Counted from the stretch's first letter, positions 4,091-25,768 are shown. The stretch: DNA of 29,764 nucleotides from Candidatus Sysuiplasma jiujiangense (GCA_019721075.1 JAHEAD010000012.1:62001-91764); one strand, 5' to 3'. Translations and numbers: made by a program. The notes: generated by a model not told the origin, from the letters alone.

Positions 4091-5155
4091 TCATCTGGAA
4101 ACGACAACCTTCACTTTGCCGAATTTTCCTCTTTTCGAATGCCTGTCCAGGGCCTGAGGCATACAGTCGAATGCGAATTCAGAATCGACAACCGTCTTGA
4201 TTTTACCTTCCGAAGAGGCTTGAAGCGCAGCTCGCAGGTCCCTGATCGAACCTGTAGTGGAGCCGACGAGCTCAATTTGTCTCGAATAGAGTCGCAGGAG
4301 GCTTATCTCTGAACCCGGACCCGTCATGGTCCCGCATGTCGCATATCTGCCGCCCGGGGCAAGGATTGAAAAACTCTGCTGGAATGTAGACTGACCCAGA
4401 AAATCTATTACAATATCCGGTCCGATTTTACCTGCAAAATCTCTGACACAATCGGCAAAGTTGTCCTCTGATGTAATGCAAACAGCATCGGCTCCGAGTT
4501 TTTGTAGCTCATAAACTCTTGCAGAATCGTTGACAACAGCCATTACGTTGCAGCCCCCCAGCTTCAATATCTGGATTGCGAACAGACCTATTCCACCTGT
4601 CGAGCCCATTACAACTGCGTTTTCGCCACTGTTCGGCCTGGCTCTTTCAACCATATGCCACGCTGTCATTCCGCTCAAAGGAACAGCAAAAGCGCTATCG
4701 AACGAAAGGTCGTCGGGAAGAGTGACAACGTTTCTTGCAGGTATCAGCGTTTCTTCCGCCCATCCGCCATTCATGGAAAGAGGGAGCATGTTTGTTGAAA
4801 GATCTACCGGCGCATGATCAGGATTCCAGCCGCTTAAACAGACACTTTCCTGGTCAGCCAGGCAATAACGACAGTTGCCACAGAACATCTTCGGAAAAAC
4901 CGCAACCCTGTCCCCTGGAAAGATGCCCTTGACACCACTGCCGATTTCTTCTACAGTACCGACGTATTCCGATCCCGGAATACGTGGAAGAGGAACCCAT
5001 TTGAAACGGCCGCCGATAACAAGCCTGTCGATATGATTGACTGCAGTTATTGCCACCCGCACCTTTACGGTACCCTCACCCGGATGTTCAGCGGCACTGT
5101 CTGCCAGCTTCAACCCGACCGGAGAACCAAATTCCACTATCCGCCAGTTTTTCAG
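4091..5155 (-). CDS. MDR superfamily zinc-binding dehydrogenase / NAD(P)H:quinone oxidoreductase-like protein
   Basis: Structural Zn motif CGNCRYC-x7-C, GSTGGIG nucleotide-binding loop and C-terminal GKFGKVKV. Catalytic Zn ligands are altered (VNHID, PGSE). Start placed at CTG 5155 (SD GCAGGTG, giving MKNWRIVEFGSP); the ORF track uses GTG 5137. Confidence 0.88.
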   Translation of the reverse strand: MKNWRIVEFGSPVGLKLADSAAEHPGEGTVKVRVAITAVNHIDRLVIGGRFKWVPLPRIPGSEYVGTVEEIGSGVKGIFPGDRVAVFPKMFCGNCRYCLADQESVCLSGWNPDHAPVDLSTNMLPLSMNGGWAEETLIPARNVVTLPDDLSFDSAFAVPLSGMTAWHMVERARPNSGENAVVMGSTGGIGLFAIQILKLGGCNVMAVVNDSARVYELQKLGADAVCITSEDNFADCVRDFAGKIGPDIVIDFLGQSTFQQSFSILAPGGRYATCGTMTGPGSEISLLRLYSRQIELVGSTTGSIRDLRAALQASSEGKIKTVVDSEFAFDCMPQALDRHSKRGKFGKVKVVVSR

Positions 5156-5397
5156 AAAAACACCTGCATTAACAAGAAGTTCGTCTGTAAGTAAAGTTTA
5201 TGATTAAGATATTAACCAAATCAGAAGGTATGGCAGTTGAAGACGCGGAATATGATTTGCAGTCTCAAAGCTCTAGTCATTGATTTACTTGGGGAGAATT
5301 GTCGTCAGTGCGGTAGATCATTTGACAGGACTGCTCAAAACGGGATTACAATGCATGCCCCACTTTCAATGTTAAGTTCCGCCTCACCTTCATGTGA

Positions 5398-8409: not shown

Positions 8410-8493
8410 GAGACAGGATGGCGGAAGAGACAAAAATACTTGATTGCGCTGCCGATAAGCATTTGAGCAGATGACGGCCTGGGCAGGATAGAA

Positions 8494-9441
8494 ATGAAAC
8501 TTCCAAGAGTGATGAATGCAGGCGAAATAATAGATTACCTCTTTTCAGCCGCCTCAAAGGCGCAGGGAAGCGGAACAAATGCGCTTACGAAGATCAGAAA
8601 GAGAAATATAAACAAACTGCACACGATCGGCGAACGGGCGGATAGACTGTTCTCCGAATATGTGACAGGCTTCCCTTCATTCGAAGAAAACACTTTCGAG
8701 TACGAGTTGGCGGATCTGCTTGTAGGTGTCGGTACACTGAAAAAGGCGATTGCATCCGTGCATGGATGCAAAAATAACGTTGTTACTGTGGTGAACAGGG
8801 CCGCCAGGGAAGTGGCAAAATCGTCCACCACCTCTGAAATGAGAAAGGCCAGGGAAGGCGCCTATGGAAGGACCGCTTCCCTGATCAAGGGCGTGGACGA
8901 AGATCTCAGTATGCTTGCCACGGCTTCGGCCAGGCTTGCAGAAATACCAGACATTGAGGGGGAAAACATAGTTGTTGTCGCAGGATTCCCCAATGTTGGC
9001 AAAAGCAGATTCGTATCATATATCTCTGGCGCCAGGACTAGAGTTGAACCCTATCCATTCACAACAACGGAACTTGTGGTGGGCCACAGGATCGTGGCAT
9101 ACACGGACATAACCTTTGTTGACATACCTGGACTCACAGAACGTGCCTTCGTAACCGGAAACCAGTACGAGAAGAAGGCGCTGCTTGCCATAAAACACAA
9201 GGCAAGGCTTATGCTCTATATCATAGATCCCACAGGGAGCTGCGGGTGTAGTTTGAAGGATCAGCATGCTCTTTTCACTGAACTCGAAAAGGCATTTGGG
9301 TCCAGGAGAACAATTGTTGCCTACAGCAAGGCTGATCTGGACAGCAACGTCAGTGAGGTGGAAGGCCTTCATTTTTCATCTGTGACGGGTCAAGGGGTGG
9401 ATGACCTTCTGGAAGCAGTGAGAAGGACGCTTGCCGGCTGA
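8494..9441 (+). CDS. NOG1-family (OBG class) GTP-binding protein
   Basis: N-terminal helical domain, then G1 GFPNVGKS, G2 YPFTT, G3 DIPG and G4 SKAD; IDPTGSCG motif typical of NOG1. Confidence 0.9.
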   Translation: MKLPRVMNAGEIIDYLFSAASKAQGSGTNALTKIRKRNINKLHTIGERADRLFSEYVTGFPSFEENTFEYELADLLVGVGTLKKAIASVHGCKNNVVTVVNRAAREVAKSSTTSEMRKAREGAYGRTASLIKGVDEDLSMLATASARLAEIPDIEGENIVVVAGFPNVGKSRFVSYISGARTRVEPYPFTTTELVVGHRIVAYTDITFVDIPGLTERAFVTGNQYEKKALLAIKHKARLMLYIIDPTGSCGCSLKDQHALFTELEKAFGSRRTIVAYSKADLDSNVSEVEGLHFSSVTGQGVDDLLEAVRRTLAG

Positions 9442-9529
9442 AATTTGATTATCAACTTTAGAAACCTGTTGGGAATACTTTAGTATTATCAGGGGCGGAT
9501 TACAGAACACAGGCAAAGAAGGTGGTCGT

Positions 9530-10204
9530 CTGGGCGAAGAGCCAGACTTGAGGAGCGCAGCATTTACACTGAAAAAGGAGGTTGACAGGCTTACTGTAGA
9601 GTACGCCAATGCCATCAAGATACTCGAGGAAATAGGTCTTAATGCAGAAAAGGGTGAAAGCTTTTCAACTATACAGGGCGCAATCAAGGTTCTCAGAGTC
9701 GAACTTGACCGGGAACTCGATATGAGCGAGATGAACAGATTCAGGAGCGAGGTGGTACTGCTCGATCCGGATGAAGAGATGAGACGCGGGAATGCAGAGA
9801 CTGCGTCGCCTGAAACTTCGCGCCGGAGGCTGCAGGACAGCAAACAGGATGAAATTCGGGAAACGGAAATGCAGTTTTCGGGCGGCGTGCCGGAGGGTGG
9901 GGCCAGCACCGGAAGAATTGGAGTCTCCGGTGTTTCCGGGACGACCGGTCCTTACATGGCATCTCAGACCAGGAGACCTGTGGTAAGGGAGGCCGATACA
10001 GACAGAATCCAGATAAGGCTATCTTCAATGAAGATTGAGAAGGTTGCCTCCGGAAAACACGATACTTCAGTGACGCAGGATCCTGCAAACGTTGCCTATG
10101 AAGCCGATGAGACAGATGGAGAACTCATAAAATGCAGAAATTGCGGCACGAAGATCAGCAGAAAATCGATTGTCTGCGTCTCCTGCGGTGAGTTCCTGCG
10201 CTGA
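9530..10204 (+). CDS. Hypothetical protein with C-terminal zinc ribbon
   Basis: Open frame filling the gap between NOG1 and polC; C-terminal CRNC-x10-CVSC. Start placed at CTG 9530 behind SD GAAGGTGG; the ORF track uses TTG 9548. Confidence 0.75.
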   Translation: MGEEPDLRSAAFTLKKEVDRLTVEYANAIKILEEIGLNAEKGESFSTIQGAIKVLRVELDRELDMSEMNRFRSEVVLLDPDEEMRRGNAETASPETSRRRLQDSKQDEIRETEMQFSGGVPEGGASTGRIGVSGVSGTTGPYMASQTRRPVVREADTDRIQIRLSSMKIEKVASGKHDTSVTQDPANVAYEADETDGELIKCRNCGTKISRKSIVCVSCGEFLR

Positions 10205-10248
10205 ATGGCTGTAACACAGGATTCCGGTAACCGCCAGACGGCCATTAA

Positions 10249-10263
10249 AGAAAGGATTAATAC
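10249..10263 (+). promoter_or_regulatory. Putative BRE/TATA box for polC
   Basis: GAAAGGATTAATA about 50 nt upstream of ATG 10309. Confidence 0.4.
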
Positions 10264-10308
10264 TCAGTACCCATGCCAATCAGTCTGAGTAACAGTTGCT
10301 GGTAAACG

Positions 10309-13300: not shown

Positions 13301-13620
13301 CAAAGCATTTCCTTCCCGACATGATAGGGAATCTGAAAAGTTTTTCAGCTCAGGAGCTCAGATGCACCAAATGCGGATCGAAATACAGGAGGATGCCACT
13401 CAGGGGAAAATGCTATTGCGGCCACGAACTGACACTGACTGTCCATGAGGCCAGTGTCAAAAAGTATCTGGAACTCACGAAGGAGATTGTGAGGAGGTTC
13501 GATCTTCCCCAATACACAATCCAGAGGATCGAGCTCATTGAGAGTTCGATGAAGAGCCTGTTTGAAAGCGACAGCGTCAGGACACTGAAGCTGACTGAGT
13601 TCGAACAGACGGCAGATTGA
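10309..13620 (+). CDS. polC: DNA polymerase D large subunit (DP2)
   Basis: AILTEGILVAPLEGI, YFSGPIRSAGGT, GFRLRYGR, GLAPHTSGG, HAAKRRNADGDED catalytic region, C-terminal CTKC...CYC zinc module and PIP-like KLTEF tail; no intein. Confidence 0.98.
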   Translation: MPEIAMSTRVREYFARLEEEARKCYDITSRARITGIDTEEKVEIPLAEDMAARVEELLSDYNVKGIAAKIRKLAENYNREELSLIIAKEIANEGSGTKLELLERAVRVGLAILTEGILVAPLEGIAGVKISAEGGTGSYVTLYFSGPIRSAGGTGQAMSVLIADVVRRELGIGRYVPTEEEVERFKEEIPLYKQTQHLQYLPSPEETEIIVMNCPVCIDGEGTEDVEVAGYRDLPRTGTNRLRGGACIVIADGLCQKASKIMKHVGNLKLDGWNFLEKITGKATDIDDGEVRIAPNEKYVKDMVAGRPIFCHPSRIGGFRLRYGRTRTTGLSAVAINPATMFVLDSFIAIGTQIKLERPGKAGAVTPCTEAEGPIVLMKNGDVVQLNTTHEALDSLKEVKEIIDIGEIVIPFGEFLENNHPLVPAGYSLEWHRALLRNRLGKLPPNWREQSWEEALATSIGHNVPLHPAYNLFWSDLTMEELFRLIEYVSGSGIFLNDELHLPLTSEKSLLEKLGALHRIKGKEIIIEKYAKPLLLCLGLEPAEGTLRRIRQPGLFSNAIETVSYLAGIRIMPRAITRIGSRMARPEKAAERKMKPSPHVLFPLGHEGGMQRLFSTAAQKGEFSVEMNQRICPSCGSTTFLSLCRCGAHTYSRGKSATFRVNIRSVLEDAAGRIGESRYSDMKGVQGLISAARTPEPVEKGILRAKHGVNVFRDGTVRFDMTDVPLTHFRPAEIGLSVERAKKLGYTMDAEGRELASSNQLCELMVQDIVPSVKFADYMKRVADFVDDELVRLYGQQPYYKLNSKWDLIGQLAVGLAPHTSGGILCRIIGFTETNAGYGHPFFHAAKRRNADGDEDSVILLMDAILNFSRSYLPETRGGLMDAPLVLSLRIDPNEIDKEAHNIDLLKEYPLEFFEATERFARPKEVEAIMDTVGPRIFSERQYEGFGFTNDTADISEGPRGSVYSTLETMEDKLWAQLELARKIRAVDAGDVAYRVITKHFLPDMIGNLKSFSAQELRCTKCGSKYRRMPLRGKCYCGHELTLTVHEASVKKYLELTKEIVRRFDLPQYTIQRIELIESSMKSLFESDSVRTLKLTEFEQTAD

Positions 13621-13658
13621 CATCAGCCGTCGGGAATCCGGCTACCTGCGTGATTGAG

Positions 13659-14318
13659 ATGCGACCGGAAATAGTGACTTTTGACATCGACGGTACTCTG
13701 ACAGTCGGTCATGGATGGTATTACATTGCGGAAATGCTTGGGAAAAAGGATGATTACCTCCGTTCAACGCGCCTTTACAGGAGCGGAAGGATAGATGAAA
13801 GGGAACACCTGAACAATCTGCTGAATCTGGCGGCGGGCAGGACGGTTGATGATATTGCAGGAATGCTGGAGAGGGTCCCTCTCATCGATAACATCGCTGA
13901 GGGAGTAGAGCGGCTGAAGTCAGAAGGCATCGGCTCTTTTCTCCTGACACATAACCCTGAATACGTTTGTAAATGGTACTCCGGCAGATTTGGCTTCGAG
14001 GGGTATATCTGCTCCAGCCAGAAGGTCGACGGAAAAACCATCCGGAGAGCTGAATCCGCAGCGCCTGACAAGCTGGCCTGGCTTGACAAGTTCTGCCGCG
14101 CCAGGAAAGTGGAGCTGGAAGGCATACTGCACATAGGGGACAGCGCGAGCGATCGCTCTGTATTCATCCGGACCGGACGCGGCATCGCAGTCAATACAAG
14201 GGACAGGTCGATAATATACAGCGCGACAGCATACCTGAACACAACGGACATGAACGATATTGCCGGAAAGGTGCTGGAAATATCAGACGGCACTCAGCTT
14301 TTCCGCGAGATCCGATGA
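13659..14318 (+). CDS. HAD-superfamily hydrolase (phosphoserine phosphatase-like)
   Basis: Motif I FDIDGTLT, motif II LLTH, motif III K (PDK) and motif IV GDSASD. Start ATG 13659, or TTG 13617 overlapping the polC stop. Confidence 0.87.
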   Translation: MRPEIVTFDIDGTLTVGHGWYYIAEMLGKKDDYLRSTRLYRSGRIDEREHLNNLLNLAAGRTVDDIAGMLERVPLIDNIAEGVERLKSEGIGSFLLTHNPEYVCKWYSGRFGFEGYICSSQKVDGKTIRRAESAAPDKLAWLDKFCRARKVELEGILHIGDSASDRSVFIRTGRGIAVNTRDRSIIYSATAYLNTTDMNDIAGKVLEISDGTQLFREIR

Positions 14319-15113
14319 TTTCTTTTCGAGTATCTCTATTGATTTGATAAGCGCCTCAGACGCGGTCAGTGAGCCGTCCGTCTCAAACTGCATGACAAAT
14401 CGGGATTCGTCGCCGGTGACTTCGACAGCCCCCCTGGGTGCTGCCTCAACGCAGGCTTTGCAGAGCGTGCACTTTTCGATATCTGTAACAACGATGCTGG
14501 ATGCCCGCTTTTCAAGTATGTTCACCGGGCAGCAGCCCGTATCGAACTTGTCCAGGTCCAGCCTGTCATAATTGAACTTGACGCTCGGATAGTACCTGTA
14601 ACCGGGCGACTGGACTGCCTGAAACCTCGCATGCTGTTTACCTGTACCAAGTTCAGCGGTTGCATAAACCAGGACTGCCTGTTTCGGGCCGAGTTTGACA
14701 ATTGGTATGAATTCATCCTTTACGCGGTACTTTTCGCTTCCCAGAGGTTCCAGATCTCCGGAATAAACGGTGCATGGCCCCTTCTTGTTCAGCGAATACA
14801 TAACAGTGCAGCTGGGGCAGCCTTCACCCTTGCAGGTGCATTCATTCCTGAAATTGAACTCATCCAGGTAGGTTGGAAGAGGTATGAGGCCGAGTCTGTG
14901 AGCTATCATTTCATCGAACAGTGGAGTGACACTCTCGTACTCTGTGCCGTCTTCACCCATTATAGGACCGAGATGAAACTCCACATTGTTGACAGCCATT
15001 TTCGGCACTTCTGAGAGAAGCGTTCTCCGCAGCGCATTTACCTGCTGAGGATTCGCATCCGAGACTACAAAGCGAATGAAATTGTCCTTTACTTCCCTGA
15101 ATTCTATATCCAT
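14283..15113 (-). CDS. rpoD: DNA-directed RNA polymerase subunit D (Rpo3)
   Basis: NALRRTLLSEVPKMA, DEMIAHRLGLIPL, IPIVKL, ferredoxin-like insert (CCP...CTLCKAC) and ETDGSL; position after rps11. Confidence 0.97.
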   Translation of the reverse strand: MDIEFREVKDNFIRFVVSDANPQQVNALRRTLLSEVPKMAVNNVEFHLGPIMGEDGTEYESVTPLFDEMIAHRLGLIPLPTYLDEFNFRNECTCKGEGCPSCTVMYSLNKKGPCTVYSGDLEPLGSEKYRVKDEFIPIVKLGPKQAVLVYATAELGTGKQHARFQAVQSPGYRYYPSVKFNYDRLDLDKFDTGCCPVNILEKRASSIVVTDIEKCTLCKACVEAAPRGAVEVTGDESRFVMQFETDGSLTASEALIKSIEILEKKSSDLAEKLSAV

Positions 15114-15125
15114 CTGAGCACCCGT

Positions 15126-15506
15126 TCAGACCCTTCTGCCACGTCTTCCGCCCTTCTTCTTTGTGCCGTCATGCGGAACAGGGGTAACATCCTCTATTCG
15201 CCCAATCTTGAGTCCCGCTCTAGCGAGTGCTCTGATTGCCGCCTGCGCACCGGGTCCGGGTGATGCTGATTTGTTTCCGCCGGGGGCCCTTACCCTGACA
15301 TGCACCGTATCGATGCCCTTCTCCTTGATCTGCTCAGCAACCCGCTCTGCGGCGCGCATTGCGGCATACGGGGAGGACTCATCCTTGGCTGCCTTGACAA
15401 CCATGCCTCCGGTACATTTAGCAATTGTTTCAGCGCCTGTTATGTCGGTGACAGTTATGAGAATATTGTTGTAGCTTGCGAAAATATTCGCAATGCCTAT
15501 CTTCAT
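15126..15506 (-). CDS. rps11: 30S ribosomal protein S11 (uS11)
   Basis: [40 protein letters not shown]. Confidence 0.98.
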
Positions 15507-16246
15507 TTGTCCGCCTCCGTGTCATCAGGCACAGCATCCTGCAGGGGAACATCCTCTTTTACCTCCACCGCCTCAACCGCTTCCTTCAGCACCACATCCT
15601 TCTTTATCTCCTTCTTCACGACCTTCTGCACCACAGGAGGAACGAATGACCGGCGTCTCGAAAACTTCGAGTTCCTTCCTTCTTCCCTGTCCGGTCTCTT
15701 CTCCTTCAGGACACCGACAAAATCTGGTGCAGGGCGCATCGGATGCATGTCGCCGGATATCGGGGATGTGGGTGAATAAGCGATAGATTCGTCCTCCCCT
15801 ATCTTGACCATATATCCCGGAACGGTCAACCGTCTCGACTGCATGCTTATATGACCGTGAACAATAAACTGTCTCGCCTGTTCCACGCTTCTTGCCATTC
15901 CCTTCTTGAGTATAATCGTCTGAAGTCTTCTGGACAGGACCTCTTCTATGTTTATCAGAAGCAGATCGTTGAGATCTGCTGTCTCGTTGACAAGACCGAG
16001 CCTCTTGCATTTTGCCAGAAGAAGCTCTGTTTCCTTCCGTGCCTGTTCGTCTCCGGCCCTGTTGCGCGCCTGAAGAGATCTGGACTGTCTTCTCACTTCC
16101 CTGAGGAAAGACTGGGCCTTCCATAACTCCTTCTTGTTCTTCAGTCCGTACTTGAAAACGAGATTGCTCTCCCTCTTAATTCTCTCCCCTTCCCACGGAT
16201 GGGAAGGCCTGTCATATTTTCTGACCGGAAACTTTGGATCTCCCAT
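15503..16246 (-). CDS. rps4: 30S ribosomal protein S4 (uS4) with C-terminal extension
   Basis: MGDPKF...[29 protein letters not shown]. Confidence 0.97.
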
Positions 16247-16266
16247 TAATTCACCTTAAAATTGGC

Positions 16267-16899
16267 TCAGCTGGCCTTCTCCTTTGAAGCTGGCTTGGCA
16301 GGCGTTTTGGCAGGAGCGGCGGACTTTGCGGCTGGCGCAGCGGTTTTGGCAGCCTTGCCCGCGGTTGCAGACTGTCCAGGCGCGGCTTCAGCGGCCGCCT
16401 TCTCTCCGCCGGCACCCGCGGCAGGCGCGGCAGCGACCCTGGTCACACCCATCGTCAGACCTGTCCTTCCGTTGGAACGCGTCCGCTGTCCCCTGACTTT
16501 CTGTCCTGTCTCATGCCTTATTCCCTTGTAACAGCGAATCATTTTCATGCGGTTGATGTCTTCCCTGACCGCAAGGTCAACTTCGGTACCTATGGCATGC
16601 CTGCTTTCCCCGGTTTCAAATTCGCTTGGCCGGTTTACCATCCAGCCCGGGAAGTTACTTGCGATTGAATTTATTGCCTCTTCTATTTCTGCATACTTGG
16701 ATTCAGGGTATGAGCCGAGCTTGACGTTCCTGTCAATGCCTGCGGATATGGCCACCCGTTCAGCAATACGCTTTCCGAGACCTTTTATCTTCATCAAGGC
16801 AACAACGGACTTCTTGTTTCCGTCCAGATCAGTGTTCGCTATATGAACTATGAAATGGAAATCGCCCTTCGCAGCATCATTCCCGGTCTGATCAGCCAA
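16267..16899 (-). CDS. rps13: 30S ribosomal protein S13 (uS13) with Ala/Lys/Pro-rich tail
   Basis: IANTDLDG, IKGLG, YKGIRHETGQKVRGQRTRSNGRTG; TTG start. Confidence 0.97.
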   Translation of the reverse strand: MADQTGNDAAKGDFHFIVHIANTDLDGNKKSVVALMKIKGLGKRIAERVAISAGIDRNVKLGSYPESKYAEIEEAINSIASNFPGWMVNRPSEFETGESRHAIGTEVDLAVREDINRMKMIRCYKGIRHETGQKVRGQRTRSNGRTGLTMGVTRVAAAPAAGAGGEKAAAEAAPGQSATAGKAAKTAAPAAKSAAPAKTPAKPASKEKAS

Positions 16900-16941
16900 A
16901 ACTAACCAATCCTCTTGTAATAATTGCCTAAAAGGTTGCCA

Positions 16942-16956
16942 TATTTAACCTATTCG
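16942..16956 (-). promoter_or_regulatory. Putative BRE/TATA box of the rps13-rps4-rps11-rpoD operon
   Basis: Minus strand CGAATAGGTTAAATA about 45 nt upstream of the rps13 start. Confidence 0.5.
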
Positions 16957-17015
16957 CCGGCTGATTCAGCCGTTTGCCGGAAAACTGTTTGGCATGTTCG
17001 GAATGGCACTGCGGT

Positions 17016-18527
17016 TCAGAGCAGCGAAAGCAGTGCCCTTGCAGCACTGTTGCAGACAGCAATCACGGGACCCGGATATATGCCTATGAGCACGACAGCC
17101 ATCAGTGCTATCAGCAGGGATGCTGAACCCGGAATTCCAAGGGAGTACCTGGGTGGAGGCGATTCTGTGTCGCTGAACATGTTTCTTATCACCCTTACAT
17201 AATAGATCAGCGATACAGCGCTGTTCATTATTCCGAAAACTGCAAGCCAGATGACCCAAGAATAACCGGGTATTATGGATGCTCCCACAGCGCTTGAAAA
17301 TATCAGCAGCTTGCTGTCGAATCCGGCAAGAAGCGGGATACCCAGCAGCGAGAGAAGGTAGAACGTCATTGAAAAGGAGATGAGCTTGTTGTTCCTGAAG
17401 AGACCCCTGAAATCGTCAACGGCTACGCCGCCTACACTCGATGACATGAGCGCAACGATGGCGAATGCGCCTGCGGTCGCAATGGCATGGGTAAGAATCT
17501 GAAATATTCCTGAGGAGATGGAGAAGATCTGCAGACTGGAACCATAGATGCCCGGATCACCGTACGCGGCAGCAAAAACAGGCAGTGTTATGAGGATGTA
17601 GCCCGCCTGTCCTATGCTGGAATAAGCAAGCATTCTCTTGAAACTCTTCTGCTGGAGTGCAACAACATTCCCCACTGTCATTGTGAGGATGGCAAGTATG
17701 CCGAATATGGGAGCCCATTCGGCTCTGAAAGCAATAAGCGCGACAATGAATATCTTGAAAATTGCCGCCAGACCGGCCTTCTTCGTTCCTGACGAGAGCA
17801 GACTGGAGACCGGTGTGGGCGTTCCCTCGTAGACGTCCGGTGCCCACATGTGGAACGGTACAATCGCAACCTCGAATCCGAAGCCGGCAATTATCATGAC
17901 AAGCGCAATCATGGCGGTCGGAAAATACGGACTCTGCGAGGAAATGGACTGCAGGGAAGTAGCCAGCGCGGAAAGCTGGAGAGTGTGGGTTATGCCGTAG
18001 AGAAGGGAAATGCCATAAAGAGCGAGTGCCGCTGAAAGCGCACTGATGATGTAGAATTTCATAGCCGCTTCGATTCCAGTCCTGTCCTTCTTCCTGAACG
18101 CGGAGATGGATGCACTTGCGAGACCGGTGAGCGCAATGCCCACAAACAGGGTAATCAGGTCGGTCGCGGCGCTGATCACCATCATACCTGCCACTGAAAT
18201 CAGCAGCAGGCTGTAGTATTCACCCTGGTTTCTGTCAGACTGTATATAGCGAACCGAGGGGAGCATTGAAAGGAGTCCCACTGTAAGGAATATGAGCTGA
18301 AAGACGACGGCGAAATCGTCTTCCACCATGACATTGCCGAAATTCTGGTTGACAGGAATCACATCGAAGAGGATGAGGAAGAGCAGGAGGAATGTTGCAG
18401 CAATAGTGGCCAGGGACACACCCGCAACCGTCCTGTTGCTGACATAAAACGAAAGTGCTGCGGCAATTACTGCGCCTGCGACCATAACGATTAATGGAGA
18501 CATGCCTGATGCGAAGAACTGTATCAT
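17016..18527 (-). CDS. nuoN: Complex I-like subunit N (NuoN/FpoN)
   Basis: EAAMKFY, PFHMWAPDVYEGTPTP, KRMLAYSSIGQAGY; last gene of the operon; ATGA overlap with nuoM. Confidence 0.95.
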   Translation of the reverse strand: MIQFFASGMSPLIVMVAGAVIAAALSFYVSNRTVAGVSLATIAATFLLLFLILFDVIPVNQNFGNVMVEDDFAVVFQLIFLTVGLLSMLPSVRYIQSDRNQGEYYSLLLISVAGMMVISAATDLITLFVGIALTGLASASISAFRKKDRTGIEAAMKFYIISALSAALALYGISLLYGITHTLQLSALATSLQSISSQSPYFPTAMIALVMIIAGFGFEVAIVPFHMWAPDVYEGTPTPVSSLLSSGTKKAGLAAIFKIFIVALIAFRAEWAPIFGILAILTMTVGNVVALQQKSFKRMLAYSSIGQAGYILITLPVFAAAYGDPGIYGSSLQIFSISSGIFQILTHAIATAGAFAIVALMSSSVGGVAVDDFRGLFRNNKLISFSMTFYLLSLLGIPLLAGFDSKLLIFSSAVGASIIPGYSWVIWLAVFGIMNSAVSLIYYVRVIRNMFSDTESPPPRYSLGIPGSASLLIALMAVVLIGIYPGPVIAVCNSAARALLSLL

Positions 18528-20059
18528 TTCAGTGCACCTGCCATCATTGAGTAGTAATGAGCGACTGCAATGTTGATCGGATTGAACATGAACCACGGGA
18601 GTATTCCGAAGACAACAATAATCAGAAGCAGTACGGCCATCGGAAAGGACTCGAACCAGTTGCCGTCATGTATATCATTCATGGATATCTCCTTTGAATC
18701 CGGGCCGAATATCGTCTTCTGCATGGACCAGACATAGTATCCTGCCGTAAGCACCACAGTAAATATCGGTATGATGAGCAGCAGGCCGAAACTGAGATAT
18801 GTGACGTAGAATACGCTGAATTCCGCAGCAAACCCTATCATACCCGGCATTCCAAGCGACGCGAGGAAGCCTCCCATCATCAGGGTGGCTAGCGTCGGCA
18901 TTTTTCTTGCCAGACCGCCGAGTTTGCTCATATCTCTCGTTCCGGCATGATGCTGAATGACGCCTGCCGACATGAATAGCACTGCGGTGATGAGCCCGTG
19001 GGAGAACATCTGGAAATCAGCAACTGTTATACCCAGCGGATTAATCTGCCCGGTTTTTGGATTCAGCGTAAAAATTGCGGCTGCTATAGCAAGGAGAACA
19101 AGGCCCATATGACTTATGGATGAGTTTGCGATCATCCGCTTCAGATCCTTCTGCGCCATGCTGACCCATGCACCGTAGAGTATGCTTATCACTGCAAGGA
19201 CGACGATCAGATATTCGAAGTATTTTGCACCATAAGGCAGGGTGGGCACAGCGATACGTATCAGCCCGTACGAGCCCATCTTGAGCAGGAGGGATGCTAG
19301 CAGGACGCTTCCCCCCGTGGGCGCATCTGTATGCGCATCGGGAAGCCAAGTATGGAACGGGAAAACAGGCATCTTTACGATGAAACCGAAGAACAGGCCC
19401 AGAAACACTATTACCTGAAAATAGAGGGGGAAGAGAGGCGAGACCGCGGCAATCTTTGTAATTGAGAATGTAAACGGTTTTGCAGGGTAGAAGCTGTGAT
19501 ATTCAAAATAAAGAGCAAAGAAGGAGAGAAGCATTACAAGACTCGACGCGTGTGTATATATGAAGAATTTTGTGGCGCTGTATATCCGCTTCTGAGAGCC
19601 CCAGATCAGTATTATGAAATACATCGGGACGAGAACCACTTCCCAGAAGATGTAGAAGATGAAGTAATTGAGCGTTGTAAAGACACCCAGGACTCCAGTT
19701 TCGACCAGCAGAATCATGGAGAAATACTGATTTGACCTGTGCTCAACGTCCCAGGAGAACAGAACAACCAGGAAGGAGACAAGGAGAGTGAGAAAAACCA
19801 TCGGCAGTGCTATGCCATCCACTCCGACGGCGTAGCTTATCCTGAAATATGAGGTGCTAATCCACGTGTAATGCTCTGAGAACTGATACCCGGGATTGCC
19901 GTAATTGAATGACACGAGCATGTAAATGCCTAGAAGAAGAGGAATGAAACTGAATATTGCAGCGACTGCCCTGTTCTTCCGCAGATCTGCAGGCATTGCA
20001 AGCAGAAGTGCAAAACCCGCGGCCAGAAATATGAGCATCAGCGATATCAGGAACAACAA
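18524..20059 (-). CDS. nuoM: Complex I-like subunit M (NuoM/FpoM)
   Basis: GVDGI, FWEVVLVPMY, KMPVFPFHTWLPDAH, LLKMGSYG, SSISHMG; TTG start. Confidence 0.96.
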   Translation of the reverse strand: MLFLISLMLIFLAAGFALLLAMPADLRKNRAVAAIFSFIPLLLGIYMLVSFNYGNPGYQFSEHYTWISTSYFRISYAVGVDGIALPMVFLTLLVSFLVVLFSWDVEHRSNQYFSMILLVETGVLGVFTTLNYFIFYIFWEVVLVPMYFIILIWGSQKRIYSATKFFIYTHASSLVMLLSFFALYFEYHSFYPAKPFTFSITKIAAVSPLFPLYFQVIVFLGLFFGFIVKMPVFPFHTWLPDAHTDAPTGGSVLLASLLLKMGSYGLIRIAVPTLPYGAKYFEYLIVVLAVISILYGAWVSMAQKDLKRMIANSSISHMGLVLLAIAAAIFTLNPKTGQINPLGITVADFQMFSHGLITAVLFMSAGVIQHHAGTRDMSKLGGLARKMPTLATLMMGGFLASLGMPGMIGFAAEFSVFYVTYLSFGLLLIIPIFTVVLTAGYYVWSMQKTIFGPDSKEISMNDIHDGNWFESFPMAVLLLIIVVFGILPWFMFNPINIAVAHYYSMMAGALK

Positions 20060-20060
20060 A

Positions 20061-22067
20061 TCACACCCCCAGAATCGGGAACAGAATCAGCACTATCGCG
20101 AGCAATATCACTCCGAGTATGATTACATCGGCATAACTCTGGACAAAGCCGGTTTCACTCTTCCTCACCTTTTCCGAGGACCATACGAAGAACCTGCCTA
20201 TCCCGTTGACCAGGCCGTCTATTCCCTTCCTGTCAAAGAAGTCGAGGCCACGGGAAATTTGATACCCAATCCATTCGCCCATGCCATCGTAGAGTTGAGG
20301 AAAATAATACCTTTCAGAGAGAAGCGTGAATATTCTTTTTCCCGCAGGTCCTGAAACAAAGGCGTCAGCTGTTCTGCCTCTTCCCCAGTAGGAATATGCA
20401 ATTCCCAGACCGAGAAATGCCATGAAGAGGGAGAGGTAGGTCGCAGGCTCCCCGAAGATCCCGAAAACACCGTTGAACTGTGTATATGGACTTACAGCTG
20501 ACAGGGCGATCGGGTAATGCACTGCCTGGGCAAAACCGGCCACGCCGAAAACCGCCATTCCGATGACGAGTGTGAGAACAGCGAGTATGATCAGCGGAAC
20601 GGTCATCACGGGAGGAGACTCATGGACATGGACTTCCTGCGGATACCTTGCCTTTCCCCTGAAGGTATAGAACCACAGGCGGAAAATATACAGACCGGTG
20701 AAGAGGGCCGCAATCAGCCCGAACAGCCAGATCAGAATGAAAATCGAATTATAGGCGGAAGCACCCAGCGCAGCGCTGAGAACCGCATCCTTGCTGAAAA
20801 ATCCGCTGAAAGGCACGATGCCTGCGAGTGAAAGAGAGCCGAAGAGCATTGTCAGGGAGGTTATTCTCAGCTTCCCTGAAAGTCCGCCCATTTTGCGCAT
20901 ATCCTGTATTCCGTCAAGCGCATGCATTACGCTCCCGGCACAGAGGAAAAGCAGCGCCTTGAATATTGCCTGATTCATAAGGTGAAACACGCCTGCGCTG
21001 TAGCCTAGCGAGTAATAAGCGGACGCTCCGGGAGACGGAGAAACTGAAAGAACATATGCTCCCGCGCCGAGCGCCAGGAACATGTAGCCGAGCTGGCTTA
21101 TTGTTGAAAATGCGAGAACGCGCTTTATATCAAATGTCGCTATTGCCATCGTTGCAGCAAACAGTGCGGTGAAGCCGCCTATGAAAGCAACAAAGAGTGA
21201 ACTGACAGGCGACTGGCTGAACAGAGGATACATCCTCGCTACGAGATAGACACCCGCATTGACCATTGTAGCACCATGTATCATTGCGGAGACGGGCGTG
21301 GGACCCTCCATGGCATCGACAAGCCAGTCCTGCAGCGGGAACTGGGCGCTTTTGCCCATTGCTCCGCCGAAAAGTGCAAGCGTTGCAATAGTGAGCAGTC
21401 CCTGATTTTTCAGTGCCGTAATCGAACCCGGCTGGAAGAGCGTATCGAACATAACGGTATGATTTCCTGAACTGAGCAGCAGCACTATGCCGAACAGAAG
21501 AAACATGTCGCCGAATCTCGTGACAATAAATGCTTTCTTGGCAGCCCTTGCCGCAGACGGTCTTTCATACCAGAAACCTATGAGGAGATAGGAGCCAAGT
21601 CCCACGAGTTCCCAGAATATGTACATCTCGAGCAGATTGTTTGCCATGACAAGCCCGAGCATAACTCCAACAAACATCGAAATTATGCCGAAGAATCTCT
21701 TTCTCCTCGGTCCCTCCTCATGCATATAGCCGACGCTGTAGAGCACAATCAGGAAGCTGACAGAGGAAACGACGGCCATCATCACGACTGTGAGCCAGTC
21801 GACATAAATTCCAAGATAAACACCTGATGTTCTTGAGAATGTTATGTATTCGAACTGCTGCTGGAATGCAGCGGGATAGATTCCGGCACCGTTTCCGGTA
21901 AACTCGATAACAAATATGAGCAGTGAAATGGCGGCTGAAATCCCGACACCAAGAACCGCTATCCATTCGGCCAGCCGCGGACGTGAAACAGGCACAATGG
22001 AAATTACGGCGAATGCGATTATCGGGGAAAGGGTTACCAGCGATGCATACGGAAGAAGCGGATCCGT
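20061..22067 (-). CDS. nuoL: Complex I-like subunit L (NuoL/FpoL)
   Basis: WELVGLGSYLLIGFWY, GKSAQFPL, AMEGPTPVSA, STISQLGYM. The frame extends 24 codons upstream of the ORF-track GTG (21995) to ACG 22067, restoring a first TM helix. Confidence 0.95.
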   Translation of the reverse strand, partial: TDPLLPYASLVTLSPIIAFAVISIVPVSRPRLAEWIAVLGVGISAAISLLIFVIEFTGNGAGIYPAAFQQQFEYITFSRTSGVYLGIYVDWLTVVMMAVVSSVSFLIVLYSVGYMHEEGPRRKRFFGIISMFVGVMLGLVMANNLLEMYIFWELVGLGSYLLIGFWYERPSAARAAKKAFIVTRFGDMFLLFGIVLLLSSGNHTVMFDTLFQPGSITALKNQGLLTIATLALFGGAMGKSAQFPLQDWLVDAMEGPTPVSAMIHGATMVNAGVYLVARMYPLFSQSPVSSLFVAFIGGFTALFAATMAIATFDIKRVLAFSTISQLGYMFLALGAGAYVLSVSPSPGASAYYSLGYSAGVFHLMNQAIFKALLFLCAGSVMHALDGIQDMRKMGGLSGKLRITSLTMLFGSLSLAGIVPFSGFFSKDAVLSAALGASAYNSIFILIWLFGLIAALFTGLYIFRLWFYTFRGKARYPQEVHVHESPPVMTVPLIILAVLTLVIGMAVFGVAGFAQAVHYPIALSAVSPYTQFNGVFGIFGEPATYLSLFMAFLGLGIAYSYWGRGRTADAFVSGPAGKRIFTLLSERYYFPQLYDGMGEWIGYQISRGLDFFDRKGIDGLVNGIGRFFVWSSEKVRKSETGFVQSYADVIILGVILLAIVLILFPILGV

Positions 22068-22068
22068 T

Positions 22069-22383
22069 CTACCACCTCAGATCTGCGACTTCGTTCACTT
22101 CTATCGTGTCCCTCGATTTCCACAACACCAGCAGTATTGCCAGTCCGACTGCCACCTCGGCGGCCGCAACTGCAATCGAAATCAGTGCAAAGACCTGGCC
22201 ATCGGCTGCGAGAGCCTGGGTCGGCGCTGTGTTTGAAAATGCAACAAAGTTGATGTTTGCAGCATTTAGCATCAGTTCTATGGACAGCAGAACCATTATG
22301 GCGTTTCTCCTGAAGAGGACGCCAAACACTCCGACCACAAAGAGGAGTGAAGAGAACAGTATCACGTCCGCTATCGGTATCAG
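22069..22383 (-). CDS. nuoK: Complex I-like subunit K (NuoK/FpoK)
   Basis: RRNAIMVLLSIELMLNAAN and AVAAAEVAVGLAI; start placed at CTG 22383 (MIPIADVILF), ORF track GTG 22365. Confidence 0.95.
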   Translation of the reverse strand: MIPIADVILFSSLLFVVGVFGVLFRRNAIMVLLSIELMLNAANINFVAFSNTAPTQALAADGQVFALISIAVAAAEVAVGLAILLVLWKSRDTIEVNEVADLRW

Positions 22384-22385
22384 AA

Positions 22386-22616
22386 TTATTCCTCCTTTGC
22401 AAGATAGACGCCGCCAATCATGGAAGCGGCGAGAAGAACGGCTACTATCAGAAATGTTATGCCGTAACCACCCGGATTAAACATCTGGTAGGAGACTGCG
22501 GCAGTGCCGGAAACAGTCTGGCCCGCATATCCCCAGTTTGCAGGAACCAATGCAATCGAGAGGACTATAAACAGCAGAAAACTCAGGAGGATCGCGATTA
22601 TTTGATATCTTTCCAA
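22386..22616 (-). CDS. nuoJ: Complex I-like subunit J, C-terminal half (J2)
   Basis: YGITFLIVAVLLAASMIGGVYLAK resembles the last NuoJ helix; TTG start behind SD AAGGAGG. Confidence 0.85.
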   Translation of the reverse strand: MERYQIIAILLSFLLFIVLSIALVPANWGYAGQTVSGTAAVSYQMFNPGGYGITFLIVAVLLAASMIGGVYLAKEE

Positions 22617-22629
22617 ATAGATTCCTCCT

Positions 22630-22884
22630 TCAGCCGACAAGTATGTTGCGTCTCGTGAGCATTATTCCAAACAGTATGAGAACGACCACAGCACCGACGT
22701 AAATCAGTATCTGTATGATACCGACATAAAAGGCGCCCAGCAGGAAAAATATCAGAGAAACACCTATGAGGACGCCTGCAAAATAGAAGGCACTGTGTAC
22801 TATCTCCCTTGACAGCACCATAAGTAGCGAAAGAACTGCCGATGCGGCTGCCACCAGAATGAAAACAGCAGTGTCGATGTTCAT
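22630..22884 (-). CDS. nuoJ: Complex I-like subunit J, N-terminal half (J1)
   Basis: VHSAF and QILIYVGAVVVLILFGIML signature; SD GGAGGTGG. Confidence 0.92.
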   Translation of the reverse strand: MNIDTAVFILVAAASAVLSLLMVLSREIVHSAFYFAGVLIGVSLIFFLLGAFYVGIIQILIYVGAVVVLILFGIMLTRRNILVG

Positions 22885-23642
22885 ACCGCCACCTCCGCCC
22901 TGGATGCTTTTTCCGCGCTTCCTATCTGTACAACGGGATCGCTGGCAGTCGTACTCCTCGGTAGCATTTCCAGCGCGTCAAACGGGCAGGCATCCACGCA
23001 GAGAGCACAGCTAACGCAGAGTTCGTAGTTGAACATTGGAAGTTTCTTTTCCGGACCCAGTGTCCCGTTTGGCCTCTTCTTTGCTGTGCCCGGAATACTT
23101 ACCATGTCTATGACCTCATGTGGGCATGCCCTGTCACAGGCACCGCAGCCTGTACAGTTTATTTCATAGAGTTCGGGATAGGGAAATGGCTTCTGGTCCG
23201 GCGCTTCATCGGGCTTTATTGACCATTCATGCGGCTTGAATATCTTGTCATTCCTGTCCTGCGTTGCAGTTTCATATCTGTTTGTCATGTGCAGTGCGGT
23301 TGACGGGCAGACCTCGACACAGAGACCGCAGAACATGCACTGCGCCATGTCGAGCGCTGGCATCCACTTCTTCACACCCTGCTCTGTCTCGTCAAGCATC
23401 ATATCGAGGCATTTGTTAGGGCAGATCCTCGCGCAGTACTCGCAGCCAACGCACCTGTCCATTACAAGACCCAATTCCCCCCTGAAGTCGTCGGGGAGTT
23501 CCATCTTTTCTTCAGGATAGAGCAATGTGTTGGGCTTTCCTCCCGCCAGCGACGTACGTATAAGAGTTCTGAGCGATATCCACATCGGCTTGAAAGCATA
23601 GCCCATCAGTCCTACACGTTTCCTTTCAGTTGTTTGTGTCAT
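22881..23642 (-). CDS. nuoI: Complex I-like subunit I (NuoI/FpoI) with four [4Fe-4S] motifs
   Basis: TLLYPEEK...FRG followed by four CxxCxxCxxxCP motifs; lies between nuoH and nuoJ; ATG 23642 behind GGGTGG. Confidence 0.93.
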   Translation of the reverse strand: MTQTTERKRVGLMGYAFKPMWISLRTLIRTSLAGGKPNTLLYPEEKMELPDDFRGELGLVMDRCVGCEYCARICPNKCLDMMLDETEQGVKKWMPALDMAQCMFCGLCVEVCPSTALHMTNRYETATQDRNDKIFKPHEWSIKPDEAPDQKPFPYPELYEINCTGCGACDRACPHEVIDMVSIPGTAKKRPNGTLGPEKKLPMFNYELCVSCALCVDACPFDALEMLPRSTTASDPVVQIGSAEKASRAEVAV

Positions 23643-23643
23643 T

Positions 23644-24681
23644 TCAGAACCACCCGGCAGATTTGAACAGAACGGCAATCAGTATATTCAGGAGAGCAAG
23701 CGGAAGAAGACTCCTCCATCCTATGTTGAGCACCTGATCGATCCTGACCCTCGGGAGGGACCCCCTCAGCCATACGAACAGTGTGAATACTGCATACACC
23801 TTGATGTAAAACCATGCAACAGGGGGCAGGAAAGGCCCGCTCCAGCCACCCAGAAAGAGTATGACCATAATCGCAGCGCCGGCAAAGGATCTGACATAGG
23901 ATGTCAGCTGGATCAGTGCAAATTTAATGCCGGGGTACTCTGTCATCCATCCATGGACAAGTTCTGCTTCAGCGTCCGGCGTATCAAATGGTATTCGTTC
24001 TATCTCAGCGACCATGGATATGAGAAAAACAATGAATCCTATAATCAGCGGGATTATGAACCAGAGGTGACTCGACTGCTGACTCACAATTGTCATGAAG
24101 TTGAAGCTGCCTGCAAGAATGGCGACAGAAATGACAGTGATAAGCAATGGAACCTCGTAACTCATCATCTGTGCCGTTGAACGGAAGCCGCCGAGAAGTG
24201 AGTATTTGTTGTTGGAGGCCCATCCTGCAATGACAATTGCAAATGGCTCAATCGCAAAAATGGCGAAAGCGAGCAGCAGCCCGAGATCTGAATTGACAAA
24301 GAAGAAATCAGGCGCCTGCGGAATGACAGCAAATATCAGAAGAGAGGAGGCAACAATTATGACCAGTGTGCCGTTGTATCCCAGAGAGTCGGCGCTTTCA
24401 GGGAGTATCATCTCCTTGACTAGCAGCTTGAATGCGTCTGCAAAATTCTGGAAAAAACCGGCAGGGCCGACGACCATCGGTCCCCTTCGGTCCATGAATC
24501 TGCCAAGCTCCTTTCTCTCAACATATATCAGTATTATGACATTGACGAGCACGATGACTATCAGGACTACTGATGCGATCACCCACGTCAGACCGTAATT
24601 GAGGAATGCATCATTCTGCAGTCCCGCGAGGCCAAGCAGAAAGGTTGAAATCGCATGGGATATCGAGTAGAGGTAGTTCAG
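23644..24681 (-). CDS. nuoH: Complex I-like subunit H (NuoH/FpoH)
   Basis: ERK...RRGP, Q-x-FADAFKLLVKE, GWASNNKYSLLGG, PFDTPDAEAELVHG, LPRVRIDQ. Start placed at CTG 24681; the ORF track uses GTG 24702. Confidence 0.95.
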   Translation of the reverse strand: MNYLYSISHAISTFLLGLAGLQNDAFLNYGLTWVIASVVLIVIVLVNVIILIYVERKELGRFMDRRGPMVVGPAGFFQNFADAFKLLVKEMILPESADSLGYNGTLVIIVASSLLIFAVIPQAPDFFFVNSDLGLLLAFAIFAIEPFAIVIAGWASNNKYSLLGGFRSTAQMMSYEVPLLITVISVAILAGSFNFMTIVSQQSSHLWFIIPLIIGFIVFLISMVAEIERIPFDTPDAEAELVHGWMTEYPGIKFALIQLTSYVRSFAGAAIMVILFLGGWSGPFLPPVAWFYIKVYAVFTLFVWLRGSLPRVRIDQVLNIGWRSLLPLALLNILIAVLFKSAGWF

Positions 24682-24685
24682 TTTA

Positions 24686-25768
24686 TCACCTGTCCGATTC
24701 ACCGAGGCACATGTCCAGGCTTCCCATTATAGACGGGACGTCGGCTAGCTTGTACCCCTTGAGCATTGCAGGGGCGGCAGAAACAGTTACGAAAATCGGA
24801 CTCCTGATCTTCACCCTGTACGGCCTGTCCGTACCGTCACCCTGAACGTAGAAGAAGGCTTCCCCCCTGGGATCTTCGGTTCTGGCATATCCGTCCGCCT
24901 TCGGGATGTGCCTCGGAACCTTTCCAATCACAGGACCCGGAGGGATCGTTTTCAGGGCCTGCCGGATGATTTTGCAGCTTTCATACATCTCATTTATTCT
25001 TACACGATATCTGGCATAAACATCACACCCTTTCTCCACACAGATGTCAAAATCAAAATCAGGATAAGCCGAATACGGATCATGCTTCCTGATATCTATT
25101 GGAACGCCGCTGCCCCTCAAAGGCGGTCCTGTGACACCGAGGTTTATGGCATCAGAGGGGCTGAGATAACCAACCCCCTGCGCTCTCATTCTGAAAACTT
25201 CGCTTTCCTCAATCAGGTATTCGTACTCGCGCATGCGCTTCTCAAAGATGTCAAGTGTCCTGCTGCACTGCTGCGGGAAATTTACCGGCATGTCCTGTGA
25301 AACGCCGCCTATTCTCGGATAGTTGTGTGTAAGTCTGGCGCCGCAAAGTGCCTGAAGGAGATCCAGAAACATTTCCCTCTCACGCATCGCATACAGAAAA
25401 GCTGTCAGATTCCCGAGATCCGTCATGAACGATGCAAGCCATATCAGGTGGGATGCAATCCTCTGTATTTCCAGAGCAATTACCCTTATGTATTCAGCCC
25501 TCACGGGCACATCAATGCCGAGCATGTTTTCAACTGCTGAAACATAAACGTGGTCCCAGCTCATTGCTGCCACATAGCAGAGACGGTCGCATATGGGCAC
25601 AATCTGTGCGTATGTCCTGTTCTCGCACAGTTTCTCGAAACCCCTATGGAGATATCCGATCACCGGCTCCGAATCCACTATCGTTTCACCGTCGACCTTC
25701 ACCTTCAAGGTCCAGAGTCCGTGAGTAAAAGGATGCTGCGGTCCCATGTTTATCCACATTTCAGCCAT
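24686..25768 (-). CDS. nuoD: Complex I-like subunit D (NuoD/FpoD)
   Basis: NMGPQHPFTHG, GYLHRGFEK, DRLCY, C-terminal DMCLGESDR; no CxxC pairs for a NiFe site. Confidence 0.96.
   Translation of the reverse strand: MAEMWINMGPQHPFTHGLWTLKVKVDGETIVDSEPVIGYLHRGFEKLCENRTYAQIVPICDRLCYVAAMSWDHVYVSAVENMLGIDVPVRAEYIRVIALEIQRIASHLIWLASFMTDLGNLTAFLYAMREREMFLDLLQALCGARLTHNYPRIGGVSQDMPVNFPQQCSRTLDIFEKRMREYEYLIEESEVFRMRAQGVGYLSPSDAINLGVTGPPLRGSGVPIDIRKHDPYSAYPDFDFDICVEKGCDVYARYRVRINEMYESCKIIRQALKTIPPGPVIGKVPRHIPKADGYARTEDPRGEAFFYVQGDGTDRPYRVKIRSPIFVTVSAAPAMLKGYKLADVPSIMGSLDMCLGESDR

Follow-up and report, generated by a model that had tools for sequence, protein, structure and literature searches.

The start codons accepted for archaea are AUG, GUG and UUG, and in eukaryotes initiation is known to occur at near-cognate codons too, among which CUG, GUG and ACG are best tolerated and are read by the initiator methionyl-tRNA (Met-tRNAi). 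This eukaryotic near-cognate initiation is under the control of eIF1, and for archaea the same source describes that the Shine-Dalgarno sequence (SD) pre-positions the initiation complex while the initiator tRNA samples the triplets in the P site, a process termed 'local scanning' (PMC6237735). In prokaryotes, the closest documented case is that of Deinococcus, for which Baudet et al. (PMC2830850) give the non-canonical starts ATC in dnaA, CTG in rpsL, CTG in Deide_03051 and ATA in infC. In Haloferax volcanii, about 30% of the putative alternative initiation sites found by harringtonine ribosome profiling are near-cognate (Gelsinger et al., PMC7261190). AUG, GUG and UUG are also the codons named in a review of archaeal initiation from 2020, whose text contains neither CUG nor ACG (PMC7531240); likewise, we found no publication that describes natural initiation at CUG or ACG in archaea. 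Here, we analyze a DNA stretch of 29,764 nt from the acid-mine archaeon Candidatus Sysuiplasma jiujiangense (GCA_019721075.1 JAHEAD010000012.1:62001-91764), called the window throughout, in which SD motifs lead to CTG or ACG codons in five genes, namely nuoH, nuoK and nuoL of the complex I operon, a zinc dehydrogenase gene and a hypothetical gene. On the strength of position, homology, enrichment and conservation, these five codons are probably the real translation starts of their genes, used by near-cognate initiation.

Several features of this proposal are reminiscent of the systems described above. As in eukaryotes, CUG and ACG are the codons concerned and third-position near-cognates are not favoured, and the machinery is homologous, with aIF1 found here and aIF1A and aIF2 described in PMC6237735. 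Unlike in eukaryotes, where scanning and Kozak context select a start for an alternative isoform, the codon here is placed by an SD at fixed spacing and would be the sole, family-conserved start of ordinary or essential genes. The Deinococcus case also concerns conserved non-canonical starts, CTG included, in essential genes of one lineage, and was likewise revealed since canonical calls clip conserved N-termini. It differs in relying on bacterial IF3 and formylmethionine, in comprising four genes with no ACG among those named, and in having N-terminal peptide support, whereas here roughly a dozen or more genes per genome, with ACG as well as CTG, are proposed from sequence. Haloferax is, like our organism, an archaeon with near-cognate sites, yet the report treats them as alternative sites which its authors set aside as possible false positives, while here they would be the sole conserved starts. 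Near-cognate initiation is thus known elsewhere, and what would be new in the present case is that it is archaeal, SD-led, family-wide and conserved.

CTG and ACG at homologous start positions

The genome that contains the window (G000) is an assembly of 2.29 Mb in 55 contigs with 49.6% G+C. The closest named match of its SRP54 is that of 'Candidatus Sysuiplasma superficiale' (87% identity), and the lineage belongs to Sysuiplasma-like Thermoplasmata. Its family, f1, is represented by ten genomes: besides G000, its own genus contributes three, genus g2 one and genus g3 five. Orthologues were searched each time in 31 genomes, comprising G000, the nine others of the family and 21 outgroup genomes from 16 other families of the class, and the orthologous start was read from the DNA at the codon aligned with the G000 site. 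The archaeal 16S rRNA of G000 ends with ...GGATCACCTCCT at its 3' end, and the expected SD is therefore GGAGGTGATCC. We define the spacing d as the number of bases that separate the codon from the 8-nt block aligned to GGAGGTGA. Among 1165 genes whose first canonical start is ATG, an SD run of at least 5 nt occurs at d=4 in 65 and at d=5, 6 and 7 in 26, 39 and 24, respectively, so that d=4 is the commonest spacing; only 41 of 11159 internal ATGs have such a run at d=4.

All ten SD-spacer-start strings that an earlier note on this DNA had quoted are indeed present in the window, with canonical examples at 16246, 15506, 15113, 22884 and 22616. At all five CTG/ACG sites, a contiguous SD match of 5–6 nt is followed by d=4 and then by the in-frame codon, which is one position off AUG (CTG at position 1, ACG at position 2). 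The canonical alternatives (GTG at 24702, 22365, 21995 and 5137; TTG at 9548) have best SD runs of merely 2–3 nt, in line with the claim that they lack a well-placed SD. Among the 12 ORFs (open reading frames) read in the nuo operon (A, B, C, D, H, I, J1, J2, K, L, M and N), only H, K and L have no SD-led canonical start; nuoN, for example, starts with ATG at 18527, preceded by GCAGGTGC. In nuoL, the frame leaves just three codons, GGT GGT AGA, between the in-frame upstream stop and the ACG.

The orthologues carry ATG, GTG or TTG at the positions of the CTG/ACG codons in nuoK, nuoL, nuoH and the dehydrogenase gene, which identifies these positions as homologous starts. For nuoK, the 17 orthologous loci, all preceded by the same AAGGAGGAG-type SD, comprise nine with ATG, four with TTG, one with GTG, two with CTG (G000 and G005) and one unresolved; within the family these are two CTG, three ATG, three TTG and one GTG, and in the outgroups six ATG, one TTG and the unresolved locus. 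In nuoL, ACG is found in G000, G005, G007 and G009, CTG in G001 and GTG in four further family genomes, and the outgroups show ATG four times and TTG twice, with two unresolved. The nuoH start is CTG in seven of nine family genomes, ATG in G002 and TTG in G003, and five outgroup genomes that were read have ATG-led N-termini; the canonical alternative of nuoH, GTG 24702, is absent from six relatives. The dehydrogenase gene, which had been called 'MDR' and which Pfam identifies as a medium-chain (zinc) dehydrogenase and not as drug resistance, was read in eight orthologues of the family, with CTG in two (G000 and G001), ATG in three and TTG in three, and a paralogue group has ATG (5) or TTG (3) there. 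The search of the 31 genomes gave no homologue of the hypothetical gene in the outgroup families. All six genomes with a readable start of this gene, from two genera, have CTG and thus offer no canonical counterpart; each time the codon is preceded by GGTGG or GGTGA plus 4 nt, although the most distant of them has only ~34% amino acid identity. Alignment of the orthologous N-termini, which the earlier note had regarded as informative, further revealed that the upstream residues, which a canonical start would leave out, are present in the relatives and conserved as protein.

Genome-wide enrichment and conservation in the family

We tallied, in a set of 2001 ORFs picked by codon-usage log-odds, the 14495 in-frame codons that precede the first ATG, GTG or TTG by 5 codons or more, and counted as SD-led the 179 of them with an SD run of at least 5 nt at d=4–6. 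CTG is SD-led in 12 cases versus 3.73 expected (p=3.8e-4) and ACG in 6 versus 1.72 (p=0.0076), which gives 18 versus 5.45 for both together (p=9e-6) and still 14 versus 5.26 (p=8.3e-4) when the window is left out. Among the 61 codons, CTG ranks first and ACG third by p-value, and they are the top two by ratio. The same tally shows no enrichment of the synonymous codons CTC/CTA/CTT (3 versus 6.2) and ACA/ACC/ACT (8 versus 7.7), nor of ATT/ATC/ATA (12 versus 11.5) or AAG/AGG (6 versus 6.5), and wrong spacings (d=0–2, 8–10 or 9–11) yield no excess of CTG or ACG. As such, a general relaxation of start-codon selection, as had been proposed for this lineage, is not supported by the data, in which CTG and ACG alone are enriched. 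An apparent excess of GCC (8 versus 2.6) and GCG (5 versus 2.2) was rejected, as two of the GCC sites have an ACG right after them at d=7 and none of the others is convincing. An SD-led canonical first start, judged in the same way, is present in 198 genes, and the excess of ~12.5 CTG/ACG sites corresponds to ~6% of the SD-led starts in G000, a lower bound as the filter misses nuoH and CDC48.

A second family genome, G005 (840 kb), gave in the same tally 4 SD-led ACG versus 1.1 expected (p=0.024). It contains additional cases in genes that are unaffected in G000, namely AdoHcyase, QRPTase and an SDR, and in QRPTase the canonical start would trim the Pfam domain by 15 aa. An AAG excess in G005 is due to AAG codons right after CTG starts. 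In the AT-rich outgroup genome G028 (1.0 Mb; 104 SD-led canonical starts), in which CTG and ACG are rare, no SD-led CTG/ACG was found versus 0.3 expected, and about 6 would be present if the G000 rate held. An ATA excess in G028 (4 versus 0.7) was not retained: two of the sites belong to L15e, for which the Pfam match speaks for the canonical ATG, and Rpb4 is neutral.

Beyond the window, Pfam domains would be clipped by the first canonical start in SRP54 and five further genes of G000 as well as in CDC48 (see table). An SD-independent screen covered 101 of 236 ORF extensions with coding-like codon usage. Of these, 68 are informative on an N-terminal domain, and in 11 the canonical start trims the domain by at least 3 residues, i.e. 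in three known CTG sites, CDC48, a chorismate mutase with CTG behind a weak SD, a phosphoesterase, three unresolved cases (PntB, DUF4147 and PAS) and two integrase fragments of insertion sequences (IS).

Some of these starts recur across the family. In CDC48, ACG stands behind GGAG plus 9–11 nt in all seven family genomes read, versus ATG with a strong SD in all eight outgroup genomes read. In rpiA, all nine family genomes read are non-canonical (ACG in G000 and G001, CTG in seven); the codon lies at or adjoins the frame opening behind a 5-nt SD, in-frame stops leave no codon upstream of the start, and the outgroups have ATG or TTG. Other cases are confined to few genomes: the alpha subunit of the 2-oxoacid oxidoreductase has CTG in G000 alone, with TTG (5) or GTG (3) in its eight relatives, GcvT has ACG in G000 alone, and SRP54 has CTG in G000, TTG in two close relatives and ATG further out. 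The outgroup codons are always canonical at the sites examined, sites that were picked because G000 is non-canonical there. Altogether, the recurrence in CDC48, rpiA, nuoH and the hypothetical gene bears out the view that this lineage repeatedly uses CTG and ACG on SD-led genes, and supports that such putative starts characterize the entire Sysuiplasma-like family of the Thermoplasmata (10 genomes).

A canonical start would arise if CTG changed at its first position or if the C of ACG were replaced by T. Synonymous sites between the family genomes are saturated: of 109 four-fold columns of nuoH in eight genomes, none is invariant and two are common to seven of the eight, as is the start CTG itself; one of 46 four-fold columns is invariant in rpiA and none of 10 in the hypothetical gene. 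With synonymous sites saturated and a canonical start only one change away, CTG and ACG are therefore likely kept by selection. In particular, CTG in nuoH (7/8), CTG in the hypothetical gene (6/6) and ACG in CDC48 (7/7) point to selection for the non-canonical codon itself, where the family genomes are related and these counts are not independent trials.

Proposed decoding and competing explanations

We propose that the SD pairs with the 16S rRNA 3' end and thereby would set the codon 4–6 nt downstream into the P site. There, the ordinary Met-tRNAi with anticodon CAU may accept CUG with a first-position mismatch or ACG with a second-position mismatch, as it does GUG and UUG, such that the protein would begin with Met. 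Since selection keeps the non-canonical codon at CDC48, rpiA, nuoH and the hypothetical gene, the codon there probably sets a particular or conditional translation level. This fits some tuning role, as the earlier note had suggested for membrane subunits; a special link to membrane proteins, on the other hand, is not supported, because genes for soluble housekeeping proteins (CDC48, SRP54, RpiA, GcvT, arginase and a subunit of a 2-oxoacid oxidoreductase) start with the same codons.

The initiation machinery itself looks ordinary. The initiator tRNA (G000:C6:62345-62432 (-)) has the anticodon CAU, A1:U72 and a GGG/CCC anticodon stem, and among the 38 calls made by aragorn, a set that is incomplete and partly spurious, none is an initiator-like tRNA whose anticodon is CAG or CGU. 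The initiator tRNA gene contains a 13-nt intron adjoining the anticodon loop, and several other tRNAs have introns as well. aIF1 is present, scores like that of other families and begins with ATG (MAGICPTCGLPEEL...), as it does in all 27 genomes read, and Sua5 and Kae1 for the threonylcarbamoyladenosine (t6A) modification are present in G000. Bacterial infC, encoding IF3, starts with AUU or AUA and is autoregulated, as described in PMC2830850. Here, too, a non-canonical start would be kept by selection, as it is there for regulation, but the fidelity-factor gene, aIF1, starts with ATG and the non-canonical starts lie in unrelated genes.

Several observations weigh against near-cognate initiation at the five sites. 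Nothing peculiar in aIF1, in Sua5/Kae1 or in the initiator tRNA accounts for a tolerance of CTG and ACG in the family, and inspection of aIF1 and the initiator tRNA, in which substitutions had been thought conceivable, revealed nothing unusual in either. The Pfam domain of nuoK begins at residue 8, with the GTG at residue 7, and thus does not by itself need the CTG. In G005, nuoH has an extra ATG one codon upstream, at d=1, and in G004 its CTG lies at d=5 with a GTG within the SD. The ORFs tallied come from a crude call of our own, the genomes compared are related and hence do not count as independent samples, and CTG in G005 (3 versus 2.1) is not significantly enriched. Finally, that CTG follows an SD more often than by chance holds in the ORF context (12 versus 3.73) but not in a context-free count of AGGTGA, GGTGA or GGAGG plus spacer plus codon on both strands, which gave no CTG/ACG excess and placed AGGTGA-N4-CTG at rank 35 of 64; as ATG itself is merely 1.7-fold in this count, its power is low and it cannot decide the matter.

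Alternatively, C-to-U RNA editing could convert ACG to AUG and CUG to UUG in the mRNA, so that the ribosome would meet canonical codons. In plant organelles, such editing makes an AUG start from ACG, and the likeness to our case is the genomic ACG at the start position; in contrast, searches with two Pfam deaminase models found no editing machinery here, and CUG would yield only UUG. It speaks for editing that a single C-to-U change would make a canonical start of either enriched codon, and that the near-cognates it could not mend (ATT/ATC/ATA and AAG/AGG) show no enrichment. Nor does RNA contradict it: metatranscriptome contigs from three runs, compared with window 5000-24800, do not span 5155, 9530, 22067, 22383 or 24681. 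However, the sites have an SD at canonical spacing and little else in common, a ribosomal signal with no common flanking motif, and GCG and TCG, which would become GUG and UUG, provide no convincing cases. PF00383 and PF14437 match a single gene, a full-length ComEB/dCMP-deaminase-like protein with CDA fold, in a search that was confined to these deaminase folds. Editing moreover offers no reason for selection to retain a genomic C over T at CDC48, nuoH and the hypothetical gene, and mRNA C-to-U editing is not known in archaea, which further counts against it. We hence regard it as unlikely.

Restart after termination, in which the ribosome would resume at the nearest SD-positioned triplet with codon identity barely relevant, appears improbable as well. 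It would apply to operon junctions only, and indeed nuoH, nuoK and nuoL begin 4, 2 and 1 nt after the upstream stop, and 9 of the 18 SD-led CTG/ACG sites have a same-strand stop no more than 20 nt upstream. The share is equal for canonical SD-led starts (102 of 198), and restart is therefore not a distinguishing feature. The dehydrogenase gene, SRP54, UDG, the hypothetical gene (88 nt) and CDC48, which has an AT-rich upstream region and its own GGAG, are not at junctions. Besides, if the codon were irrelevant, the synonymous CTC/CTA/CTT and ACA/ACC/ACT should appear, but they are not enriched.

The retained genomic C would find a reason if editing were a programmed, start-creating and regulated step, carried out by an enzyme unrelated to the deaminase families searched; we give this variant a slim chance. 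Translation might also begin at the downstream GTG, TTG or ATG, with shorter proteins and untranslated conserved residues upstream. This is what gene finders would call, and nuoK and the dehydrogenase would lose just 6 residues. Yet the lack of SDs at these alternatives and their poor conservation, exemplified by the missing GTG 24702, speak against it, and NuoL would lose 24 residues, CDC48 100, and six other Pfam domains would be clipped, at the expense of upstream residues that relatives conserve as protein, which makes a downstream start very unlikely. Errors of sequencing, assembly or binning, or decaying genes, are practically negligible. G000 does consist of 55 contigs, the relatives are draft bins, and foreign contigs identical to G000 occur in G001; yet up to nine independently assembled genomes of three genera show the same codons at the same sites, the reading frames are intact and essential genes are involved.

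If near-cognate initiation is indeed used, standard gene finders truncate or mis-start proteins in these genomes (NuoL by 24, CDC48 by 100 and the SRP54 N domain by 26 residues). A preference for CUG and ACG would then be common to eukaryotes and the archaeal aIF1/aIF2 machinery, a point that matters for the evolution of start-codon selection, and the codons kept at particular genes would suggest a layer of translational control that is undescribed in archaea.

Feature coordinates and minor observations

Table. Proposed CTG/ACG starts, with SD blocks and coding sequences (CDS) in window coordinates, and cases elsewhere in G000. Residues lost refer to the Pfam domain when the first canonical start is used.
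Feature	Codon	Coordinates (strand)	Remarks
nuoH site	CTG	24681 (-)	ACAGGTGA-taaa-CTG
nuoH SD block		24686..24693 (-)	ACAGGTGA; 6-nt run; includes nuoD stop TGA 24686-24688
nuoH proposed start	CTG	24679..24681 (-)	
nuoH CDS from CTG		23644..24681 (-)	345 aa; Pfam NADHdh, E=3.4e-105
nuoK site	CTG	22383 (-)	GGAGGAAT-aatt-CTG
nuoK SD block		22388..22395 (-)	GGAGGAAT; 5-nt run; includes nuoJ2 stop TAA 22386-22388
nuoK proposed start	CTG	22381..22383 (-)	
nuoK CDS from CTG		22069..22383 (-)	104 aa; Pfam Oxidored_q2, E=1.6e-26
nuoL site	ACG	22067 (-)	TGAGGTGG-taga-ACG
nuoL SD block		22072..22079 (-)	TGAGGTGG; 6-nt run; in-frame TGA 22077-22079 closes the frame upstream
nuoL proposed start	ACG	22065..22067 (-)	next canonical codon GTG 21995, 24 codons downstream
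nuoL CDS from ACG		20061..22067 (-)	668 aa; Pfam Proton_antipo_N and Proton_antipo_M
Zinc dehydrogenase ('MDR') site	CTG	5155 (-)	GCAGGTGT-tttt-CTG
'MDR' SD block		5160..5167 (-)	GCAGGTGT; 5-nt run
'MDR' proposed start	CTG	5153..5155 (-)	
'MDR' CDS from CTG		4091..5155 (-)	354 aa; Pfam ADH_N and ADH_zinc_N
Hypothetical gene site	CTG	9530 (+)	GAAGGTGG-tcgt-CTG
Hypothetical gene SD block		9518..9525 (+)	GAAGGTGG; 5-nt run
Hypothetical gene proposed start	CTG	9530..9532 (+)	
Hypothetical gene CDS from CTG		9530..10204 (+)	224 aa; weak C-terminal zinc ribbon
CDC48 candidate start	ACG	G000:C1:177077-177079 (+)	VAT-like AAA ATPase; first ATG drops 100 residues including CDC48_N
SRP54_N	CTG		26 residues lost
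GCV_T (GcvT)	ACG		19 residues lost
POR (2-oxoacid oxidoreductase alpha)	CTG		22 residues lost
FAD Rossmann	CTG		15 residues lost
AAA_23 / SMC-like	CTG		14 residues lost
Arginase	ACG		8 residues lost

The hypothetical gene gave Zn_ribbon_3 below the cut-off only in Pfam, and no match in NCBIfam. In the nuo operon, nuoJ is split (window 22386-22884 (-)) into J1, with 84 aa from ATG 22884, and J2, with 76 aa from TTG 22616, each with its own SD at d=4. Two short contigs of the G001 bin, G001:C89:3-281 and G001:C99:1812-2090, are 100% identical to the nuoH N-terminus of G000. The own nuoH copy of G001 is 88% identical to G000 and the contamination of the bin is 6%; it seems that the bin includes pieces of a G000-like strain. 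In G003, the match to rpiA (G003:C171:6008-6688) contains one in-frame TGA. Two overlapping integrase-core (rve, rve_3) ORFs at G000:C7:172-737, which have no canonical start for the greater part of their domains, were set aside, as they look like a frameshifted or decayed IS transposase.

In a mine-drainage metatranscriptome, 9 of 11 contigs of one run are at least 99% alike to the window, in parts away from the five codons. One RNA contig of 1099 nt matches window 11391-12489 (+) with three differences, inside the 1103-aa gene at 10309-13620. With such near-identical RNA contigs, the G000 organism or a near-identical strain was therefore present in that mine-drainage RNA library.

A few frames open with other near-cognates. 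The phosphoesterase-family gene from the Pfam screen (G000:C54:38481 (-)) reads AGAGGTGT-agtgc-ATT, with a 6-nt SD and ATT as the second codon of the frame; its N-terminus is arginine-rich and signal-peptide-like, and the first canonical start does not come before residue 66. Two paralogous small membrane proteins (G000:C14:10512 (-) and G000:C29:6538 (+)), which we take to be pilin-like, share ILAPKPKGSS... followed by a hydrophobic stretch; in these two, TGAGGTGG/TGAGGTGA is followed at d=4 by ATA and ATT, 3 codons past the frame opening, and the proteins possibly begin at these codons. In G028, ATA and ATT likewise stand at d=4 behind an SD at the openings of two long frames (G028:C44:61144 (-) and G028:C1:21585 (+)), encoding a KaiC-like ATPase and a 505-aa protein with no Pfam family, where the first canonical start comes 34 and 37 codons later, and these are possible candidates for ATA/ATT starts.

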